Made by a program: the position numbers and the translations under genes. A stretch of DNA of 56,788 nt, counting the filler, from Platydemus manokwari (taxonomy: Eukaryota): NCBI GenBank assembly GCA_037951405.1. It is 5 parts of 5 records of this genome, joined end to end, with 100 filler letters (N's around TTAATTAATTAA, not from the genome) between each part and the next. Parts side by side here need not be neighbours in the genome. Positions count along the whole stretch, not along the records: positions 1 to 14,649 come from JBBMOY011425866.1; 4 more parts are not named here. One strand, 5' to 3'. Shown here one piece after another: positions 1 through 45,863 of this stretch (the first letter of the stretch is position 1; every line of letters starts with the position of its first letter). The notes beneath the pieces are model-generated. The model saw only the letters and a list, made by a program, of their open reading frames with translations, did no database searches and was not told where the DNA came from.

Positions 1-932
1 TAATTAGTGTATCTTTGTAATTTTTGTGCTAGCAATAAATTTGTATTCGTAATATAGTAGTGTTTTTATTTTTTCATTGGCAGGTACCAAAGGTCCTATA
101 TCATTTTGGTAAATGACATCATCTTCAAAATCATCTCATTACCTTTGGTAGGATGCTGTTGAAGCAATTAGAAGTTAAAAGTTTGGTAAATAATCGTAAC
201 TTTATGAAGCAGTGTCTAGAGCCACTCATTCCGTCTCTACACGTTGATTAGAGTTGATCCAGGCGAAAGAACATCATATTATTAGGCCAATTGTAACCTT
301 TTCGTGCTTAGAACTCAGACATTACTCAAATGTATCAAGAGTAATAATAATAATGATAAAATATCGATATAGACCACGAATACAACGTAATAATGATTAT
401 AAATGATTTCATGAAATAAATTATTTAAGTTAATTATTTTCTTAATTATGTTTGAAGTTAAATAAGTACATAATAAAAATAGTTAAATCAAATGCTGAAG
501 TTATAACAGCTTAATTTTCTGAATTTGCCATGCTCTTATACCCTAACCCAAATTCATATCGTTTTAGTGTAATTTTACTTTTGAAAAAAGTTATTTTAAG
601 TTTCAAGATTTAATGTTATAATAATTTTTGAAAAATTTCGCTCTAGTTTCGAAATTACATGGGAAGGTAGCTTTTAGGTAATAATTATAACGTGAAAGAT
701 TAATAAATTATTTAAAAATAAAAAATAAATTTAATTAGAAATTATAATTATTTTAAGTTGTTACATAAGAATTAAATGTAAATAATTAAGATAAGAAAAT
801 AAAAATTCTAAGAAGCAATGTTTTTATCAAAAATTTAAATTATTTGACATTGGCGAAGAACAACGATTTTAATATCTCAATACATTATTGTTTAATTAAT
901 CGCTTTTATTAAGAATATAAACATTGAGAAAC

Positions 933-2362
933 ATGTTCAAATTAAGTGTTTTTTCTTCAATGATTTTCAGCAATATTAATTTTTTAAATAATAAGATTGG
1001 TATTAAATTAGTAAAACATATACATTGTACTATTCAATGTAATGTTAAAACCAGAATCCAAGTTAATAGTTACTTATTCAATAGAAATGTGCCGGCCTCA
1101 GAATTATTAAATAATTTAACAGAAGATGATGCTAAAAAATTAGACCAGATAAAGGTTCAACATCAGTTCTTGTTATCAAAAGGATGCTTAGTTCCAAAGT
1201 TACTTCGAGATTATGATTATTTAGAACTGCTCTGCTTATCTAATAGTCAGCAAATGAAATATTATAAATTTTTAGCTAAAAAGGAGTTTATAAAAGAAAA
1301 TGAAGTCATTAAAAAATCTGTTAAAAAAACTCCAGTAGTGTTTGAGGAAGTTAGTGATTTGTGTTATTGATATTGTAATTTTTAATTAATAGGAGCTTAC
1401 ACATGCCAAAAATCAATTTTATCCGAAATATTCAAATAAAACGGTGAAAATTTTGGAAACAAATCAGTTATTCCAAGCGATTAGACTAAATTATCAAGAG
1501 ATTATAATTGACGTATCGTTTGAAGATGACATGTACCGAAATGAAATTAAAAATTTAGCTAAACAGATCAATTATTGTTATGCATCTAATAAAGATTTAG
1601 CTGAACCTTTTCAAATTGTAATTCCTAATTTACGGCCTAATAGTGTGACATATTTCGATTTAGCGAATACATTTATTCCTATTGATACGGTTAGTAGTGT
1701 AAATCATTCTTGTTATATTTGTATCGCTATATATATAGTGAGAGAGAGATGAATTTTGATTTGTTATTTGTTGTGTGTGATGAATTGTGAATGAAATAAA
1801 TAGCCATTATTATTATTATGATGATGATGATGTGATGTGATAAAATGAAATCTATTTTCTTGTAGACTAATTGCCCCTTTAAAAAATTAGAAGATTTGCC
1901 ATTAATAATCAGTGAGAAGCATTATTTAGATTTATATCCTGATCGCAGATTAATATATTTGTCACCCGATTCCACGAATTTCTTTCAGGAAGGCGAATAT
2001 GATCACGATGCGATCTATATTATTGGAGGCATTGTTGATAAATGCTCCAATGCACCTTTAAGTTTGTCTAGAGCAAGGAGAGAAAGTATGTCCTGATTTG
2101 TGTGTTGCTGTTGTGTGTTTGAGGATGAAAATTCAATAATGTAGGAATCGAACATCGATGTTTTCCCATTGATCGATATGTTGAATGGAAAACTGGTAGA
2201 AAGGCACTCACTTTAGACCAATCATTTAATATTATGAAATTGGCTCGAGAATCAAATGGTGATTGGCGTTCTGCTATTATGTCAAGCATTCCCAGCCGAG
2301 CATTGATCGATAATTCCAACATCAAGTTCAATAAAGGATTCAAAGCATTTCGAAAGAAATAA
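933..2362 (+). CDS. TRMT10C: tRNA methyltransferase 10 homolog C / mitochondrial RNase P protein 1 (MRPP1), 4 exons, ~383 aa
   Basis: Exons 933-1349, 1393-1689, 1866-2085 and 2145-2362 join through GT-AG introns (43, 176, 59 nt) into an open frame of 1152 nt. Trm10 SPOUT motifs are present: IIIDVSFEDDM, LIYLSPDS, IYIIGGIVDK, FPIDRYVEWKTGRKALTLDQ, GDWRSAI. The N-terminal transit-peptide-like extension and the YYKFLAKKE helix favour the mitochondrial paralog C. Confidence 0.9.
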
Positions 2363-3299: not shown

Positions 3300-3833
3300 C
3301 TCGTCCTTGTGGCTTTGAAACAATTTTCGGGGCTTGCCACGGTTTTTAGCTTTCTCTTTATTCATTTTCAGGATGATTGGCGGGATATGTGCCAATCGGA
3401 TACTACTGTCTATATTCACATCTGATGTGGCATCCCATAACTCCATTGTCGATGTTGCTACCTCTTGTCCTTTTCAACTTTTCTCCCCCCTCCTGTTTTC
3501 GGCGATGGTACTGGTGTCTCCACTTCCAGTTTTATCTCGAAGTCTTCTTCCTCGTCTATCTCCAGGACTTCCTCCTCTTCCGTTTCTTTCTCCATTTACT
3601 CATTTTCTCTTACCCACTCATTGTATTTCTTTATTGTTAAATTCATTTTCTTCGCTTCTTCATGCATTTCTTTCATTTCTTTCTGATCCTGTTGTAACTC
3701 CTCTATTCGTCCTTGTATCGTCTCCACATTGTCCCACTTGTTTTTCATTTCATTTGCTTTCTCCTCAAATTCCCTCATTTTCTCTTTAATTTCTTCTACC
3801 TTACTTTGCATTTCCTTCATTTCTCTCCTCGTC
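3300..3833 (-). pseudogene. Coiled-coil/acidic C-terminal segment of retroelement polyprotein (where integrase would be expected)
   Basis: MKEMQSKVEEIKEKMREFEEKANEMK... heptad-like E/K helix, then an acidic stretch (ETEEEEVLEIDEEEDFE) and a basic RGKPRK patch near 3330. No HHCC or DDE motif. Confidence 0.5.
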
Positions 3834-5160
3834 TTATTTTCCTATTCGGATTCTTCTTATTTCTAATATTGATTTTCCCTCCTTGCATTCTGGTATTCGT
3901 GATAATGAATCTGCATTGGCGTTTGATTTTCCTGATCTGTATACTATTATTATATTATGATCTTGTAGTTTACGTGCCCATTCTATTAACCTGCTCGATG
4001 TATCCCTATGCTTCATAAGGCTCTCTAATGGTTGAAAGTCTATTTTTAATATTATTTTCGTTCCATATATATATATATATTGTCTGAATTCTTTCAATGC
4101 AAATATTATTGCTATACATTTCATTTTTTCCACTCTCTTTAGCGATCTGCTGGCGTAAGCTATTGTGTGATCCGATTCTCCCTCGTCTTGCTGTCCTAAC
4201 ACCGCTCCAAAAGCGTCTCCACTTTCATCGGTCATTATTCTAAACGGCTTCTCCATATTTGGGTATCTTAATATTGGGGCTTGCGTTAGATTTCGTTTTA
4301 ATGTCTCAAAAGCCTGTTGCTGCTCCTTTCCCCATTTTATCCTTAACCGGCTTTCCGTTTTACTGCGTTTTCCTTTTCCTTTTCCTTTTTCCTTTTCAAC
4401 TCCTTCTTTTTTATCTTTTTTATTTCTAATCTGTTTATATTCTTCTGCTGCTTTCTTCACCGGGTCATAAATTGGCATCGCAATACGTGCTTTGGCTCTG
4501 GGAACTTAGCTATTTTTCCTACTTTTGCCGGGTCTGGTGCTATTCCCTTTGTTGATATTATGTGATGGTTTTGCCCATTCACATTTAGTGGATTTTATTT
4601 TTAATCCCGACTTTTTGAGCCTAAAAATACTCTTCCTATATCTACAAAATGGTCGTCAAAGTTTTCGGAATAAACTAATATATCGCCTATGTAAACCATA
4701 GCATGTGGTACATCTGTTAACACCGTATTCATAAGTCGTTGAAACGTTGCTGGTGCTCCTGTTAATCCAAAAGGCACCTTTATATATTCATATAATCCCT
4801 CTCCTAGACAAAAATCTGTTCTTTCTATGTCTTCCTCGGTGACTTTACCTGATTATATCCTTTATTTAAATCTAACTTGGTATAATATTTTGCTCCGTTT
4901 AACTTATCAAATATATCCCTCATATTTGGCAACGGGAATTCATCCTGCTTCGTTTTCTTATTCAACTCCCTGTAATCTACGCATAATCGCACTTCTTTAT
5001 CTTTCTTCTTTACTGGAACCATATACGTTTTATATTGTGACGAACTTTTTCTTATGAATCCAAACGCTTCCATGTGTCGTATCTGCTTTTCTGCTTCTTC
5101 TAATATCTTGTATGGTATTCTTCTGCTTAGTAACTTAATAAGTGTCTCATCTGTTGTATG
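3834..5160 (-). pseudogene. pol: pol remnant: Ty3/Gypsy reverse transcriptase and RNase H
   Basis: RT motifs RRIPY, VKKKDKEVRLCVDYRELNKKT, FPLPNMRDIFDKL, KLDLNKGYNQV and YEYIKVPFGLTGAPATFQRLMN; the catalytic YIDD is mutated to YIGD (4682-4693). RNase H motifs FRIMTDESGDAFGAVLGQ, IAYASRSL and YRSGKSNANADSLSR. Frameshifts and short deletions are present. Confidence 0.95.
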
Positions 5161-5164
5161 ACTT

Positions 5165-6227
5165 CCGTCGTTCAAAATTAATACATTCGCTCTTGATTTC
5201 TTATCCTCCGTAGACACCCATATTCCATCATCCGTTTTAAATACTGAAGACATAACGTTTGAACACACCTCTATTCTCGCGGCTTTGTAATTTTCGCTCA
5301 AGATGATTCTTGTTACTGGTTGTAAAAATTCTTTTTTGCGTTATATATGATTGGCATATCGTTGGTGCAGTATTCATGTTTTTTGACCAATAAGTTGTTT
5401 ACCATTTTACACTGGAAGGTATAAATGACTTCCCCTACTACTCTAGCGAATGTTTTAGTTTCCTTAAATATTTTTCCTTTAATTTCTCTAAATTCCGTCT
5501 TCTTGAGCAACGTTAATGGACATTTGTATGGATTACTCTTGTACATTATTAATGATTCTCCCGAATCACATGCTGAATTGTCATATTCACAATGTGTCCA
5601 TGTAGTCATTTTCCTGGTTTTTGCATCCAAGGTGGTTTGATATTCTTGCAATTCTATAATGTAGTGTCCATATGCCATTTTTTACTACCTTTCCATCTAT
5701 CATGTAGTCACCTCCTTTGCAATATCCTCCATGACTAGACCATCCTTTTTGATTTATTGTATTCGTCCTGGTGATACCACTACTTGTATTCCTTTTGGTA
5801 TTTGATAAATTCCCTTTTCGAATGCAGCTTTACAACTTTCCACTGAAGGTATTTCTAGTACTGTCAGCCATGCTTGTACCAGTGTTACTGTGTATCCTCC
5901 TCTCTTATATGAACAATGGAAAAGCATTTCTTGATATGCAATTTTGCATTCCCTTGCTTTTTCAAACAGAAACTCTGATTCCTGATACACATACATTTCC
6001 TTTGGTTTTAACTGTGTAATATTTACTGGATATGCCTCTGAGCATTGTTCAATATCCAATAGAGAATATTTCTTCCCCCATCGTGGTTTGCTACAATCAT
6101 ATCCACTTATTCCGAAATTTGCTCCCCCTATACTGCTTATTACATATATCGCGAATAGCGTCTGAACTATTGTGGCCAATGTTAACCCTACTCCTAGTAC
6201 TGGTTGTTCACGTTTTGGCTTTTTCAT
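5165..6227 (-). pseudogene. env: Envelope-like glycoprotein, chuvirus G / class III (gB-like) type; internally deleted and C-terminally truncated
   Basis: Hydrophobic signal (VLGVGLTLATIVQTLFAIYVISS), then GYDC..KYSLLDIEQC, YVYQESE..RECKI..FHC and SVESCKAAFEKG. Bridging the frameshifts gives GWSSHGGYCKGGDY, THCEYDNSACDSG, ARVVGEVIYTFQCKMV, CTNDMPIIY, FLQPVTRII and C..VFKTDDGIW. This cysteine/motif order matches my recollection of chuvirus-type glycoproteins (GYDC..SLL...C; AGEV....C.PV; C.NELPV; FL.P.TRIL). Confidence 0.8.
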
Positions 6228-6249
6228 TCCCTTTAATAACGTAGTAACT

Positions 6250-9200
6250 ACTGGAGTCCATCCCCCAACTCCTTTACCATGTCTTCGTATTCATCGTATA
6301 TTATTTCTGCTCCTTCGTCTATGTTTATTACACTCTTATACACGTGATTACTTAATGTTCTCAACGTGACTGCTATTTTTCCCACTGTCTTTTCCCCTTC
6401 ATTTAAAGATTGCATCACTATTTTTAATTCATCCTTGTTATTGCATTGTTGCATTTCTTTTAATGAATTCTTAATTGGTTTTGTTAGATTCTTTAGTATA
6501 TTTACTTGTTCCTGTTCGTTCCATTTAAGCATGCATGGTAACTTGTTTACTGTCTCATCTTTTCCATCTCCTTGTCTCCACTTTTGAGTTTATTCTCCGA
6601 CTGATGCTGAAAGGCTGGTGCACTGGTGCTTGGATTATTATCTTCTACTCTGCTTGAGGATACCCTGACCGGCTCTGGGTTTTTTGCTTTGTTTGTTGAT
6701 CCTACTGGTCTCCCCCTAGGTTTTCGTGTGGATATGCTTTTGTCTTTGGTTTCTGCATTAGTTTGTTGTGCCGTATGTGTTTGTTGGCTTTCATTTAATA
6801 ATTCTTGATCAAAATATTGGAATAGTTCTTCATGATTACCATATCTATCATGATTTACTTCTCCCAGCACTTCCGGCAACTCCTCCTCTTCTTTTCTTGA
6901 TGGCTCTATTATCTCTTTTTCTTGATCACTTATCTCCTCTAATATGACGTCCTCCTCTTCTTCTATTGTTTTACTACACTCTCCTTCCCTATATGGATAT
7001 ACTATTTTCTTCCTCGATACCCCTTCCTGTTTTCTGCTGATACTATTTTTTAGTGCCAGTGACGCTTTTCTTTCTTCTTGTATTTGTTTCATTACATTTT
7101 CTCGTAGTTCCCTTTCCCTGCTGTACTTTTCCTATTTGGGTATTTATGTTTTTGCTTTCCTATGCATCCTAAACACAAATATTTCTTTTCTACTTATTTT
7201 TGTAGTTGATTCTTTGGCACTCTTTCCACCATATTCATTATGCTGTTTTCTTTCTTTGTTCTTAATTCTAGTGCCTTTAGGAAATCCTCATTGGAATTTA
7301 ACTCACTTCATTTAGAGTTTGCTGATTTTGGAGATTTCTCCTCACTACTTTTTGTTACCGGAGTAACTTCTTCTTCATCCAAATCTACCCCTATTATCTG
7401 ATTAGCATTTATATATAGCTCCCTTTTTTCTTTTTCGACCGGTTCTTTATTAAAACTCCTACTTCTACATTTAGACTTCTAAATTGTTTAGAATTATCCG
7501 GTTTAAATGGTATTGTTCTAACAGATCCCTACTTTTCAGTCTCATCCCCTTATTATAAAGAGTAATGCTTAATTTATTGACATGTTCTGTCATTAAAAAG
7601 TTTTGTCTAATATATTCCTTCATTGTTTCCTTCTGAGCTTTCCCTATTTATCATGTTAAATTCTCTTGGCCTCTTCTGGTATTATATCGATGGCTAAACA
7701 TGAATCTCCCTTGTCATTTTTTATGTATTCTCCTATACATTTCCATTCTGCCATCCTTTTGTCCTTAAACCTCAATTTCACCTTTCCTTTTATTTTTTCC
7801 AACTCCCCGGCTAATCCAATATTATCAACTTCCTAATCAGTTGAACTGATGTAGACATATGTAATTCCATGTCTTATTGCATTTGCTCTCCCTCACTATC
7901 TTTTAGGTAAATTTCCTCTTAATCCCGTTACATTTATCGGTGTCTCCTTGAGGAAATTCTCTTTCCCTTTCCTTTAGTTGTTCTCTTTGAGCCTATCTCC
8001 ATAACTCAACTTGTTTCCCTTGCTCATACTGTATTATTAGTTTATTTAATTCATATATAATTTCCTCTGGCATACTTATCCTTCTTAACTTCTCCCGTAT
8101 CCTAATGAATGTCCTTCCACACAGTAAAGGGTTTGGGTAGTATTTTCTCTCCTTAAGTTGTAAATACTTGAATGCTATTACCTCTTGACTCATTTTGATT
8201 GCATCCGTCCTTGTTAGTCCCTTTTTTACTAACTTTTCTTCTCCTTTTTTCTTCTCCTAATATTGATATTATTGCCTGCACCCGCTCCATTTTATCTCTT
8301 GCATCCGGCCTCTTGACGCAACTCATCATATTTACTTCCTTAAACTCCTTTTTTCTTCCTTCCGCCATTCGCTTCTTTTTTTATAATAATACGCACTATA
8401 ATGCGCAATTTCATGCGCACTATTATGCGTTTTATGCGTCATCCCTAAATCACTTAATATTACCTCTTCTGTGACTGGTGCTTCCTTATGCCATGCTTCC
8501 ACTCCGCATTCGGGATGTTCTTCGTTTGGCCAAAAACCTAATGCCCATTGCAATATTTCGCTTATGCTTGTATTTTCATCTACCGTCAGTGCTCCCCCTT
8601 TATTATTTCTTAAATTTCTCTCTTCGTGCATTAATTTTTCACAATGACTTCCTGGATATAACTTTACTATCCCATTTTTTATTATTCCATTTGGATATCT
8701 CTTTGGATTTTTCAGTACCACTATTCTGTATATCTGTCCACGTCTTAACCTCAGGTCTCTTGTCATCATGAGTTGTCTTCCTTGCATAAACATTATTATT
8801 TCATCTTCACCCGACACCCATTCATCTGTCCATCCTGTATATTTATATTTCCATCTCTGCTCCATTAACAATTAGAATTCTAGTACCGTCTCTTTTCCTT
8901 TAGTAGTTATCCACTCATAATGACTATCCTCCTCTTCGCTTACCATTTGGAACTCTATTATCACTTTTCCCTCTGTTCTTCTTATATTTTCTCTTCCCCT
9001 TTCTATATCGTCAAATGCTACTCCTCCTCTGACTGTGATCTTTATTTGTTCCCTATGTCCGTATACTGGTTGTGTTCTTATCTTTATTTGCTCAGCTTTC
9101 CATAACACTGGACATCGTTTAGCTATATCTTTGTATATCTTTTTCATTGAATCATTGAAGTTTATTTCCACATGAATTTGTTTTTTAATTCCATATCTAT

Positions 9201-11100
9201 CTTCTACCAGGATTGCTAATTTGTATTCTCCTTCTTCCGCATCCCTTCCAGGTTTTTCCTTGTCGTCCATTTTATCGTATATTCCTTTGCTTTCTAATAT
9301 TTCCATCATTAATTGTTCTCCCCACGTTTTTTATCCAAATAATCTGTTACTCCTGTATTTACCCATTCCGGATGTGTCACCAGTGTTATATCTCTTCCTC
9401 GTGGTATTGGCAATATCTTGCATTTTCCTATTATCTCCCCTCGTTCTTCCTTTTCATTTATTTTTTATGCCCGTTCTTCCATTATTATTTTACTTTTTGT
9501 CGCTGTTAACTGAATCAATGAGTATTCTGCTCTCTTTCTTAACGTTTTGACTCCTTCTACTATTCGTTGGAATTCAATTGCATTATTTTTCCCGAAAAAC
9601 GGCATTCCTATCCTCAACTTTTGTCCATGTGTTAGCAGTATTTTTAATCTTATTATTACACTTGAAGGTTCTAATTCATTTTCCCGTATGTAATCTTCTG
9701 CACACTCCACTATCTTCCATACCTGAGTATCAAAAGTTCCTTCTGTTTTTTCTCTAATTCTCTTTTCACTTGGTGTTTCATCTATTAATTCTCTAAATAT
9801 ACCTATCAGCGTTTGCACATTAATGTGATCCCTATTATCCTGCGTTAGCTTCATCCACAGCCCGTCTTTGTCTCCATATTTTCACATTCTCGTAGTCTTT
9901 CTACAAACTCGTCTATATTCCGATAGTCAATTTCCCTATTGACTAAATATTGTCCTAGATAATCCAACTTCCCTATTAGTTGTAAAATGCCCTTGCATTG
10001 TTACCAATTTTGATGGGACATATACTGTTTAGGTTCCTGGCACGTTTAATACCTTTGGCAATATTTTTTCAATTATCGGCATTGTTAAAGCTGGTTTTAC
10101 TGGTATTTTTTCTAATATTAGTGCTACTGCTACCTTGTATTTCTTTTTTCGTGTTATCTGGTCTTATTGCACATCTTTTTCTTTTAATTTTGTTACATTA
10201 TCTCTCTCCTTTTTATCCTGTGATTTCTCAGTTTCCAATTCTTGGCTCCTTATGCACCATTTTACTGGTCTCCCTGTCTCCTCTGTGACATCTTATGATT
10301 GGAGATTTGGTTTCTTTTCCCAAATCTCATTGATTTCATCTAGTGAACTGACTCCTTTCATATCCGATTTTGATTCCACTTACAGTATTGTGCTATTTTC
10401 GTCCGCTAATGCCCTGTTCGACACTTCTTCCTCACACTCTTCTTTTTTAATCAACTGCTCTTCTGTCTCCACCAGCTTGAATTCTTCTTTACTTTTATTT
10501 TTAGGTTTTAATGCCGGCAGCATTATCGGGCTTACAAACCAACGTCATAATGGGTTTCCATAATGAACAACTCATCCATTAGGTTCAGCTGCAATTCCTT
10601 CACTGTGGGTAGATTTTCTAATATTTCTATTGACAATTCCACTTTCTCTCTAGCACCTTTCTGCCTCATTGCCTCCATTTCTTGTTCGCTATTAATCATG
10701 CATATGTTGAGAGCTTCATATTCTTCCAAATACAATGTTTCTTGTCCGGGCTTCAAATTGTTCACTGGTGGTTTTAGCATTGGTTTGGTGTGAACTATTG
10801 CATACATATTGTGTCTCATATTGTGAAAAACCTTGATCTATTATATAAGCACTATCCGGTAATTCATCGAACTTAAGAAATATCTACATATTTTTCACTA
10901 TCTTATTATTTTCTTTTTCCATATACTGTGTTACTAATTTCCGTATTTTTCCGACCTTTGCTCATGCATTTCATGTAACTTTTATTTTGTGCTCCTGTGG
11001 CCCCTCCGTTGCCCATATGTTTATCCTCAGCGGTTTTTGCAATGCTGTTTTATGGGGGACTAATCTTCCCCATCGAGCTGCTTGCTCCACCTATTGATAG
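6250..11100 (-). pseudogene. ~4.8 kb of unrecognised retroelement-encoded protein sequence (fragmented ORFs), includes AT-hook RKPRGRP at 6706-6726
   Basis: Abutting minus-strand ORFs 10532-10819, 9465-9854, 8872-9309, 8332-8871, 8153-8368, 7993-8193, 6547-7092 and 6248-6532 share the purine-rich codon bias of gag/pol. Several join by single stops or frameshifts. No family recognised. Confidence 0.6.
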
Positions 11101-11129
11101 GTTAAATCATCTGCCATTAAGACGTGATC

Positions 11130-12960
11130 TTACAGCTTAATTAATATTTCTTTTGCCTGAGATATTTCATCCTTCTCCACTAATTGTACCATCTTATTTA
11201 CTTTCTCCACTATCGTTAATGGTTTGTTTTCCTTATTCTTCTTCTTATTAAAATCTTCATATTCTATATTCATGCACACTACCTTGGGATCGACTACTTC
11301 TGCTAATCGAGTTGATAAATTTGCTAATTCTTTCCTTAACGTCTCCACATCGCTATGCGCCACTGCTTCTATTGCTTTTTGGGATTCTTGTGAATTATTC
11401 TGCCTTTGCCTGCATGTGGTTATGGTGTGTCCAAATTTGTTACAACATTCACACTGGATTCTTTTGTTGCTATTCATCCTGTCTCTCCCATAATTAATAT
11501 ATTTTGTTTGATTGCTGTTATAATTTCTCTTATTGTATCCTTCTGCTGACTGACTTCTGGGTCTATTAGCCCTTTGCATTTCATTATTATAATAATTATT
11601 GTAATTGCCTTTATAGTTCCTCCCTTGATTATCAAAATTTTGACTGTTAAATTGTGCATACTTATTGTTATTCCCCCTGGAAATGCGATTATTCGCTGGG
11701 CTTCTGCTCACATTATCATTATTATTCCTATTTTGACATCCATTTCTATCACCGTTATACCTATTGTCACTATATCTTTGGTAATTTCGCCTATAATTAT
11801 TATTGTTATATCTTCGATATCCATTATCATTGTATCTTCGATCACTTTGTCGATAATTAAATTAAATAATTACTATAATTATTATTCCTATTGTTGTCCT
11901 GATTTCTCGCGTACTCTTTATTAACATTCCACTTCGGGCTATCTTGAAATTGTGTCAAAATTCTACTCAATTCGGACCATTTCACATTCAAATCAGGGTT
12001 TTTTTGTCTTCCTTAGTCACCCTTTGACTCGACTTTGGCGGCGAGCTTAATCGCTCCGGTTCCGCAAATGTTATGGCATTCACCGCAGGGAAACTCATCC
12101 CACAGTGAGGATTTGTAGAAAAACCCATGCCACAAGTTAATTTCAATTGGCGCGCTTTTAATATCAAATCTTCTAATGTTGAGCATTCTGCTATTGCCAG
12201 CGTGCTCTTGAATGCACTGTTAATTCCCCTTTTAAATTGGTCCATAATTATTCTTCTTCTTCCATCTTTTGTGATCAATGTATCATCATATGCCTTTTCC
12301 GCTAACTTGGTCAACTCCATTGCATATTCTTGTTCTCCTTCTCCTGAACGCTGATATCGATCCAAAAATTGTCTGACATAATATTCGAATCCAATACTAT
12401 TCCCTTAATTATATCCTTAAAAGTTACTTCTTTCCCTTGTAAATTTTTATCTGCCTGCATCATCTGTTGATGCTCTTGGAGGGCATAGCCCTTTAAATAT
12501 AGCGGCAACCGCATTATTTTATTATTATTATTCCATCCATAAGCCGTAGCAATCCGCTCGAACTCATCAAAAAAATCGACAAACAATTCTTGCAGACCCT
12601 CAAATGGGGTTATAGGCAAATAAATTAATTTACCGAACTCATTGTTAGACATATTACTATTATTATTATTACTATTATTCTAATTATTACTCTCGTTACT
12701 CATATCTTCGTCTCTATGTATTTCTATATCACTATCAATTATTATTTTTCGTAAACTTAAATCACTATTTTCTTTAGAATTTGAATTACTATCCCCCGAT
12801 TGTGTCGTGTGTTCACTTATATCACCACTTATTTGTATTTCGTTTAGACTATACGTTGATTCAGTATCTATTTTTTCCCTTGCTAACGATTGACTTCTTG
12901 ATAAACTTCGGTTATTATTCGAGTATCTTGTGCCTCTTTTATTAACTTCGCTATATCACT
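11130..12960 (-). pseudogene. gag: gag (capsid-like domain, N/R/Y-rich linker, CCHC zinc knuckle)
   Basis: ITPFEG..FFDEFERIATAYGWNNNNKIMRLPLYLKGYA and QRSGE..EYAMELTKLAEKAY..DQFKRGI are Gypsy capsid signatures. CECCNKFGHTITTC is a CX2CX4HX4C knuckle at 11412-11453. Frameshifted. Confidence 0.9.
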
Positions 12961-14578
12961 TATAAATTCCCTTCTCTTAGACAGTTTGACTGTATTTATT
13001 ATACCAGTATAACAATATATAAAATAATATGTATGATTACGTAATCAATAACTTTCAAAATATAGAATATACAATTTTAGTTCTATCAAGCAAATATTTG
13101 CAAATATTTTAATAAACACTTGATTTATTATCTACTCAATTGATTACTATTACAATCGACTGACTCAATTGATTCAACCCTAATCTGGATTCAATCAATT
13201 CAGCTCACATTAAATTTAATCAATTCAAGCAATTTATTGCTCCTCTTCTCCCTTAGAAATAAGTTCGAGGCACCACTTTTTATTAAATAAAATTTTTGTT
13301 TTTTTTTGTTTTTTCGAGTCGCGCTTGGGGCTTCAACAACCGGTATTGAAGACCGAACTGTTGGAAAATAGTTTAATATTAAGTTGAGAATTGAGCGCAA
13401 AGGAAACTGAGTCATTTTGAGCCTGAAAAGTAATCATATGTGATTACGAAAACCTCTCTCAATGATTATCAGCCAAAATAATAAATGATCTGTTTAAATA
13501 TGTGATGTTATGATTCTCCCTTGATCAGCTTTTATTTGTATCAATAGATTCAATGAATTATATAGAAACCGAACGCGATGATGGGTTTAAAAATATCTAT
13601 TTGAGAAAATTGAGTTGAACAATTATTATGAAAAAGAGCGTAAAGGTATTGGAATAATATCCCGTCCTCGCCTCAGCGATTAACAGGTAATCCATGCAAC
13701 GGACGAAGATATTAAAAAAATGCGGAGAGAGTTATTATCGTTAGCACTTCTAATATAAAACCAACTGTAAAGTTAGAATTAATTATCAATGGTTATAGTA
13801 TTATTATAAATGAGCAAAATATTAGTGATAATTGACTTTATAAACTATTATTAACAGACACAATAATTATTCTAAGTGAGCAATAATGAATAATGAAAAC
13901 AAAACAATAAGGTTAATAATTCTTAATATTAGCTCTTGAATGAAAGTATCTCCCAAATAAAAACTCCTATTTCGATAAATATCCACTTAGCGTCGTTAAA
14001 TTTCCCGCAATTAATCTTTTTTTTCCGGCCAAAAAGTCTCTTCGCTTTAAAGTGCTTCTTCATTTAATACCAAATGCTTCTCTTGATAAGTTGTAATAAT
14101 TCCTTTCTATTCTGTCACAACTTAACTCGTAAATTAATGTGTTTGTTATGGATATTCTTCTATGACCAGCGCCGCTATTTATACGCGCCTGGTCATGTCC
14201 ATTTTTCTCTCACAGCTTTTCATGACGAATTTTCTCACTTAGCTTCCTGTTTAATTTTACTTTGTTTGATTTTTCTCACCGATTTTTCACTTACAGTTCA
14301 TGTTAAATTTTATTTTGATTAATTTTTCTCATCAACTTTCCTTCATATTCCAACTAGATAATTTACCGGCTTTACCTAATTTAACCTTATTATCTATTTT
14401 AATTAATATTTCTTATATTAACTTGCCTTCTTTTAACTTTGGTATTTATTATTAATGTTATTATTTATCTTTATAAGTTATTATCAATTTTATTATTTAT
14501 TATTTTGTTTATTATTGATTTTATTATTTATTATTTATTTAACTATTTTAACCTCTTCGCTTCGTTCATCTCCTCCGT

Positions 14579-14649
14579 TGTTAGATTTTTGACATAATAC
14601 ATAAAACAATAAATAAAACACTCAATAATAAGAGAACAATTCAATACCA
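14579..14649 (-). repeat. Candidate inner (U5) end of 5' LTR, truncated by assembly gap
   Basis: TGTTAGATTTTTGACAT matches 2942. The adjacent minus-strand CGGAGGAGATG resembles a tRNA-Ala PBS (TGGTGGAGATG) with 2 mismatches. Confidence 0.4.
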
Positions 14650-14749
14650 NNNNNNNNNNNNNNNNNNNNNNNNNNNNNNNNNNNNNNNNNNNNTTAATTA
14701 ATTAANNNNNNNNNNNNNNNNNNNNNNNNNNNNNNNNNNNNNNNNNNNN
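14650..14749. other. Assembly gap with TTAATTAATTAA linker
   Basis: N-run flanking an all-frame-stop linker; same layout at four sites. Confidence 0.98.
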
Positions 14750-24750: not shown

Positions 24751-24850
24751 NNNNNNNNNNNNNNNNNNNNNNNNNNNNNNNNNNNNNNNNNNNNTTAATT
24801 AATTAANNNNNNNNNNNNNNNNNNNNNNNNNNNNNNNNNNNNNNNNNNNN
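24751..24850. other. Assembly gap with TTAATTAATTAA linker
   Basis: N-run with artificial linker. Confidence 0.98.
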
Positions 24851-34337: not shown

Positions 34338-34437
34338 NNNNNNNNNNNNNNNNNNNNNNNNNNNNNNNNNNNNNNNNNNNNTTAATTAATTAANNNNNNN
34401 NNNNNNNNNNNNNNNNNNNNNNNNNNNNNNNNNNNNN
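34338..34437. other. Assembly gap with TTAATTAATTAA linker
   Basis: N-run with artificial linker. Confidence 0.98.
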
Positions 34438-45763: not shown

Positions 45764-45863
45764 NNNNNNNNNNNNNNNNNNNNNNNNNNNNNNNNNNNNN
45801 NNNNNNNTTAATTAATTAANNNNNNNNNNNNNNNNNNNNNNNNNNNNNNNNNNNNNNNNNNNN
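45764..45863. other. Assembly gap with TTAATTAATTAA linker
   Basis: N-run with artificial linker. Confidence 0.98.

Follow-up and report, generated by a model that had tools for sequence, protein, structure and literature searches.

The window analyzed here, a 56,788-nt stretch of Platydemus manokwari DNA to whose whole length all coordinates refer, carries a Ty3/Gypsy long terminal repeat (LTR) retroelement on the minus strand of its first stitched contig (1–14,649). The element stands out as a purine-skewed block at ~3300–12950 (−), in which a Gypsy-type reverse transcriptase (RT) is followed by RNase H (RH) (PF00078, PF17917, PF17919), with gag, recognized by similarity, upstream. A fusion glycoprotein (env) is sandwiched between gag and RT-RH, and the positions of the three bear out what a preliminary description of this DNA had proposed. 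The features of the element, in which ORF is open reading frame and TM transmembrane segment, are as follows.

11133–12709 (−), gag in three broken ORFs, with a capsid-like part, an Asn/Arg-rich linker and a CCHC knuckle at 11412–11453 (tblastn, and knuckle in the sequence)
6590–11130 (−), accessory region of ~4.5 kb, coding-like but broken, with a motif at 6706–6726 that we take to be AT-hook-like
6251–6532 (−), probable Bcl-2-like domain ("X"), parted from the env ORF by a frame break near 6262–6270
6138–6194 (−), internal signal-like hydrophobic stretch ahead of env (best 19-residue hydropathy 1.91; similar stretches precede env in relatives)
5185–6110 (−), remnant of a class III fusion glycoprotein (env), its TM anchor gone (PF24664, E 5.4e-10, and collinearity with relatives)
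5453–5466 (−), in-frame internal gap in env, which is ~135–150 residues shorter here than in relatives
5154–5185 (−), env/pre-RT junction, a putative internal deletion of the C-terminal part of env, TM, tail and protease region
4472–5151 (−), RT, frameshifted, with a degenerate catalytic motif at 4682–4693 (RVT_1 on two ORFs; 42–46% identity to relatives)
3888–4337 (−), RH (PF17919, E 1.8e-26; PF17917, E 6.8e-23), within ORF 3834–4505
3300–3841 (−), coiled-coil/acidic tail

By tblastn, the window gag matches the N-termini of two relatives (P0014, E 4.5e-23; P0008, E 5.9e-14); no Pfam match was obtained with the gag ORFs of the window. The accessory region has the same A-rich base make-up as gag and env. 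Remnants of protease (PR), RT, RH or integrase (IN) were found neither in the gag-env interval (6301–11130) nor past RH, where IN is absent and no 3′ LTR was found. No LTR pair was detected, the flanks of the element having no match to each other; the contig stops at 14649, and the element looks truncated on its 3′ side. The copy is dead and cannot function, because TM, PR and IN are missing, the RT motif is degenerate, and stops and frameshifts are many.

The join of env and RT lies in the stop-to-stop ORF 4825–5340 (−). Two peptides quoted in the preliminary description, one of env (5218–5268) and one of the pre-RT region (5110–5160), indeed share one frame there, and the 3′ part of the ORF matches RVT_1 (Pfam, E 4e-8). 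Similarity to relatives stops at 5185–5212 on the env side and begins at 5139–5154 on the RT side, so the junction belongs near 5160, where it had been placed. The further claim that env is in frame with RT holds for the last ~50 env codons only; env overall is cut by a stop (5754–5756), changes frame near 5700 and again near 5330, and has a second in-frame gap near 5455. ORF 5754–6290 passes the curated cut-off for PF24664 (Monjiviricetes_fusion, E 5.4e-10). Two details upstream of env were amended: a run of five G's given as 6272–6276 is at 6262–6266, 10 bases off, and the segment 6210–6277, described as the env signal, looks like the end of the Bcl-2-like domain, the hydrophobic signal-like stretch being the one at 6138–6194.

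The native domain order was read from relatives. With the env ORF as query, a full HMMER search produced 40 matches, which with 2 cluster members make 42 proteins, all scanned against Pfam. Env and a pol domain occur in one protein in eight of the 42 (P0003, P0004, P0005, P0006, P0014, P0038, P0039, P0041), and a metagenome contig, L001, the single locus found by an alignment-based related-locus search, provides a ninth case with a stop-free ORF of 3426 aa. In 9/9 of these stop-free proteins env is ahead of the pol domain (protease). Five relatives (P0005, P0038, P0039, P0041 and L001) contain env-PR-RT-RH-IN without a stop, IN following RH in each, and in three (P0004, P0008, P0014) gag precedes env. 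The window env is collinear with P0003–P0006, P0010, P0014, P0038, P0039, P0041 and L001. In relatives, a hydrophobic stretch stands before env and a TM follows ~550–570 residues on. The L001 ORF, whose 5′ end is cut off and which is 28–44% identical to the window, is collinear with it and reads Bcl-2-like domain (residues 341–417), env, TM, three PR matches, RT, RH and IN.

Several side observations were made on these proteins. Among P0005, P0039, P0041 and the L001 ORF, several carry two or three stretches resembling a protease in the env-RT interval, and several have long post-integrase tails bearing hydrophobic stretches; P0041 (4844 aa) also matches ankyrin and C2H2 domains. At 10617–12107 (+) of L001, 3′ of the polyprotein, an ORF matches RNase_T (DEDD exonuclease, E 1.4e-5). 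P0038 (HBK71150.1) is recorded under a Flavobacteriaceae metagenome-assembled genome (MAG) as a hypothetical protein, yet is an env-PR-RT-RH-IN LTR polyprotein, and is therefore likely to represent animal DNA in a MAG bin. In P0022 and P0025, env is fused to FAD-oxidase or MRP-L47 domains; these are probably gene-call chimeras at insertion sites. P0002 was discarded as an env relative, its match being a spurious one to a repeat protein.

When the window is aligned to the five full relatives, it passes at the junction from residue 601 to 1407 of P0005, 834 to 1352 of P0038, 803 to 1400 of P0039, 664 to 2460 of P0041 and 923 to 2109 of the L001 ORF. It is thus short by ~490–1,780 residues, env TM and protease included; the preliminary description had raised the possibility that these two lie between the blocks in full-length copies, and in full-length, if distant, relatives they do. 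The second env gap, near 5455, corresponds to jumps from 369 to 518 (P0005), 608 to 756 (P0038) and 704 to 842 (L001 ORF). The element was also compared with run X1, in which 1,318 contigs lie on it, 158 of them at a match of at least 99%; this is a comparison of contigs, which cannot show read support, with 15 of 52 joints and 6 of 347 loose ends listed. Single contigs jump over 46–1,777 bases of the element, each at single-contig depth, and private deletions are therefore usual in this element family. As far as sequence can tell, the simplest reading of the direct env-RT join is an internal deletion within one env-before-pol element.

The region immediately before env was examined separately. 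A BH2-like motif lies 57–87 residues before the env start in 8/42 relatives, and five relatives have weak Pfam matches to Bcl-2. A profile of six BH2-motif relatives matches Bcl-xL (E 1.7e-4), with Bcl-xL/Bcl-2 the only proteins in the 60 rows listed, and for a predicted model of P0018 (pLDDT 54.8) every Foldseek match listed is a Bcl-2-family chain. In the window, ORF 6251–6589 occupies the same pre-env place; against a profile of the pre-env domain of eight relatives it ranks top of 462 window ORFs (E 0.031), with a score equalled by 8 of 2000 shuffles, and its predicted model is a four-helix piece (pLDDT 79.8). Several results count the other way. The Pfam Bcl-2 scores of the relatives are all under the curated cut-off, and the Foldseek E-values of the P0018 model are 0.037 or worse. 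The window ORF itself has no Pfam Bcl-2 match, and its model matches Bcl-2-family chains only alongside numerous other helical bundles: the best Foldseek E, 0.76, is to another protein, and Bcl-xL ranks 9 (Z 7.2, root-mean-square deviation 2.5 over 64 residues). A profile of all 18 pre-env segments was weaker (E 0.085), phmmer with P0018 alone did not find Bcl-2, a word-index protein search with P0018 1–125 found nothing among 88 candidates, which is weak evidence, and the ESM Atlas held no usable match for ORF 6251–6589 or P0008 636–760. We consider that the window ORF is probably Bcl-2-like, with good support in the relatives and weak support here. Since the Bcl-2-before-env arrangement is seen in 8/42 metagenomic env relatives and in L001, it may be a wider lineage trait.

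Further upstream in the accessory region, four of the five top Protein Data Bank matches of ORF 8875–9330 (−), in its part 9034–9234, are p53/p63 DNA-binding domains (phmmer, E 0.33–0.53). This hint is not significant (E 0.33–0.8) and grew no stronger with one stop translated as X; the region has no Pfam match, and a literature search for a p53-like domain in retrotransposons returned no match with the term among those listed. A ubiquitin-like reading of ORFs 8335–9330 was dropped, no support for it having been found. Six ORFs of the accessory region gave no Pfam match to MATH/TRAF, BIR, ankyrin, SUMO-like or dUTPase domains, in a region that is broken and in a copy whose PR-RT interval is deleted. 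A bolder proposal, that the copy represents a Burro-like gag-env-pol lineage from outside flatworms, nematodes and bryozoans, perhaps of a rotifer, and that its single polyprotein has captured two regulators of cell death, one a Bcl-2-like domain held in the membrane by the env signal peptide and the other a degenerate DNA-binding domain of p53-like type at 9034–9234, appears unlikely to us.

We conclude, on the strength of sequence comparison, that the window very probably holds a decayed Ty3/Gypsy copy whose native order was env before pol in one polyprotein and whose direct env-RT join arose by deletion. This native order is favored because env comes first in 9/9 relatives, the gag-env interval is free of pol remnants, and the same order is published for Burro, a planarian element. 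The intact form would be a single polyprotein: Gag, accessory region, Bcl-2-like domain, internal signal, class III fusogen, TM, protease(s), RT, RH and IN. The domain order, the hydrophobic stretch before env (6138–6194 here) and the later TM of relatives are observed; the remaining steps of the following model we infer from general membrane-protein topology. Gag and the accessory part would be made in the cytosol. The internal signal would direct the fusogen into the lumen of the endoplasmic reticulum (ER), where signal peptidase would free its N terminus, and the env TM would halt transfer and bring PR-RT-RH-IN back to the cytosol, the cytosolic parts being cut by the element's own protease. 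The signal could double as the anchor that holds the C terminus of the Bcl-2-like domain in the membrane, and this domain would act on cell death in the host. Here, the deletion would have taken out the env TM together with the protease, so that env now runs in frame into RT.

Certain results sit less easily with this conclusion. The relatives are distant (env 24–45% identity) and none is a same-species sibling; the nine are not independent, since P0006/P0041 and P0010/L001 are near copies. A protein search reveals env together with pol only where the two are fused, and P0011, P0035 and the best match, P0001, which have their start at the signal or close to it, may represent env ORFs that stand alone. 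An RT identity of 42–46% does not diagnose the lineage, an env tree of 31 rows (11 short ones excluded) leaves the window unplaced, and among the X1 rows listed none bridges 5160. Other searches for relatives were negative: a word-index protein search with the env ORF found nothing among 379 candidates, which is weak evidence, and related-locus searches gave no relative with the window RH, with the window env, or in viral contigs.

The preliminary description had offered, as one of its two explanations, a deletion joining two tandem or nested gag-pol-env copies, the env of one to the pol of the next. The deletion stands, and env ORFs beginning with a signal of their own (P0011, P0035) as well as the multi-copy, deletion-prone nature of the element would suit such an event, but a fusion of two copies is not needed to explain the join and is in our view very improbable. 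It calls for two further large deletions, one of all pol between gag and env and one of LTR, gag and PR after env, whereas 6301–11130 holds no pol remnant, the pre-env segment fits the fused Bcl-2-like/signal layout of env-first relatives, and base make-up is uniform across the join.

An artifact of assembly is somewhat easier to entertain, though still unlikely: the order would be native, and a short-read contig chimeric across the repeat family would have produced this exact deletion, which would then not exist in the animal. The window itself consists of stitched contigs with N linkers, only 158 of the 1,318 X1 contigs reach the 99% level, and none of the pieces listed extends over the stretch or across the join. 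Against a chimera, exact-match X1 contigs at a depth of 13–20 are distributed along the copy, and summed X1 depth does not drop in the bin 5064–5407; both points are weak, because X1 may be the source sample. Least credible of all is that the short env-RT fusion, lacking a protease, represents a distinct architecture with a function. The frame is kept across the join, but one in three deletions keeps the frame by chance, 490–1,780 residues with TM and PR separate the blocks in all five relatives holding both, and the copy is full of stops. Moreover, the join removes the env TM, and RT would therefore enter the ER lumen.

Outside the element, a TRMT10C-like host gene (tRNA m1G methyltransferase) with an intron of ~56 nt occupies 921–2362 (+) and ends close to the 3′ side of the element. 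Its exon had 17 matches, the named top ones being bdelloid rotifers at 46–54%, which is too weak to name a phylum. A possible long 5′ LTR region lies at 13000–14649 (−), in which a TATA-like box stands near 14180 and primer binding may start near 13275; the region from 13000 up to 13300 is repeated in run X1. The N-run linkers between stitched contigs are at 14650–14749, 24751–24850, 34338–34437 and 45764–45863, the first of them having been taken for a stretch with stops in every frame.

By itself the copy is of little weight, as another broken representative of a class already in print. If the signal does double as a Bcl-2 anchor, such elements would be a compact system in which a retroelement keeps its host cell from dying as it produces a fusogen. 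The Bcl-2-before-env layout, in print for Burro, is not mentioned in the main text of a recent report on errantiviruses (Chary and Hayashi 2026, PMC13524379), where the term "Bcl" is absent; supplements of that report beyond file 1 may annotate such domains. On Bcl-2 domains in LTR elements, the description of Burro (PMC6431247) was the sole relevant source found.

The window element shares with the NERV elements of nematodes the position of env before pol. NERVs reportedly have one gag-env-pro-pol ORF with an RNA-virus-like glycoprotein, and we know of no Bcl-2-like domain in them. L001 has Bcl-2-like domain, env, TM, PR, RT, RH and IN in one ORF collinear with the window element, and differs by its downstream exonuclease ORF. 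The architecture is not new, having been published for flatworms, nematodes and bryozoans. The preliminary description had raised, as one of its two explanations, a new architecture with an embedded fusogen. The relatives do display env ahead of pol within a single polyprotein, preceded by an internal stretch that resembles a signal; the novelty is not supported, given the published gag-env-pol elements (PMC6431247, PMC13524379), and neither is a gag-pol-env order for every env-bearing LTR element. "HSV/gB-type" errantiviruses of GAG-ENV-POL order are described from Nematoda, Bryozoa and Platyhelminthes (PMC13524379), in a report that cites Sacco et al. 2022 for NERV elements with env and pol flipped. 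Like them, the window element has the gag-env-pol order and a class III fusogen between gag and RT; theirs is flanked by signal and TM (PMC13524379), and here the signal-like stretch is at 6138–6194 and the TM, present in relatives, is deleted. PF24664 presumably corresponds to the gB type of that report. In contrast to these errantiviruses, the window copy is not intact and no LTR pair was found. Burro (GYPSM1) of planarians is a giant Gypsy element with a Gag bearing a CCHC knuckle, a long accessory region, a BCL2-like domain and a mononegavirus-like env in frame before PR-RT-RH-IN (PMC6431247), all of which is reminiscent of the window element with its probable Bcl-2-like domain. The remnant here is ~9.5 kb, whereas the internal region of Burro reaches 25 kb (PMC6431247), and ~3300–12950 remains well short of giant size even with the missing parts added; the window gag has one knuckle, and the window ORFs scanned gave no MATH, BIR, ankyrin, SUMO-like or dUTPase match. 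Without claiming strict Burro membership, for which the element is too small, we conclude that it works like Burro and the GAG-ENV-POL elements.

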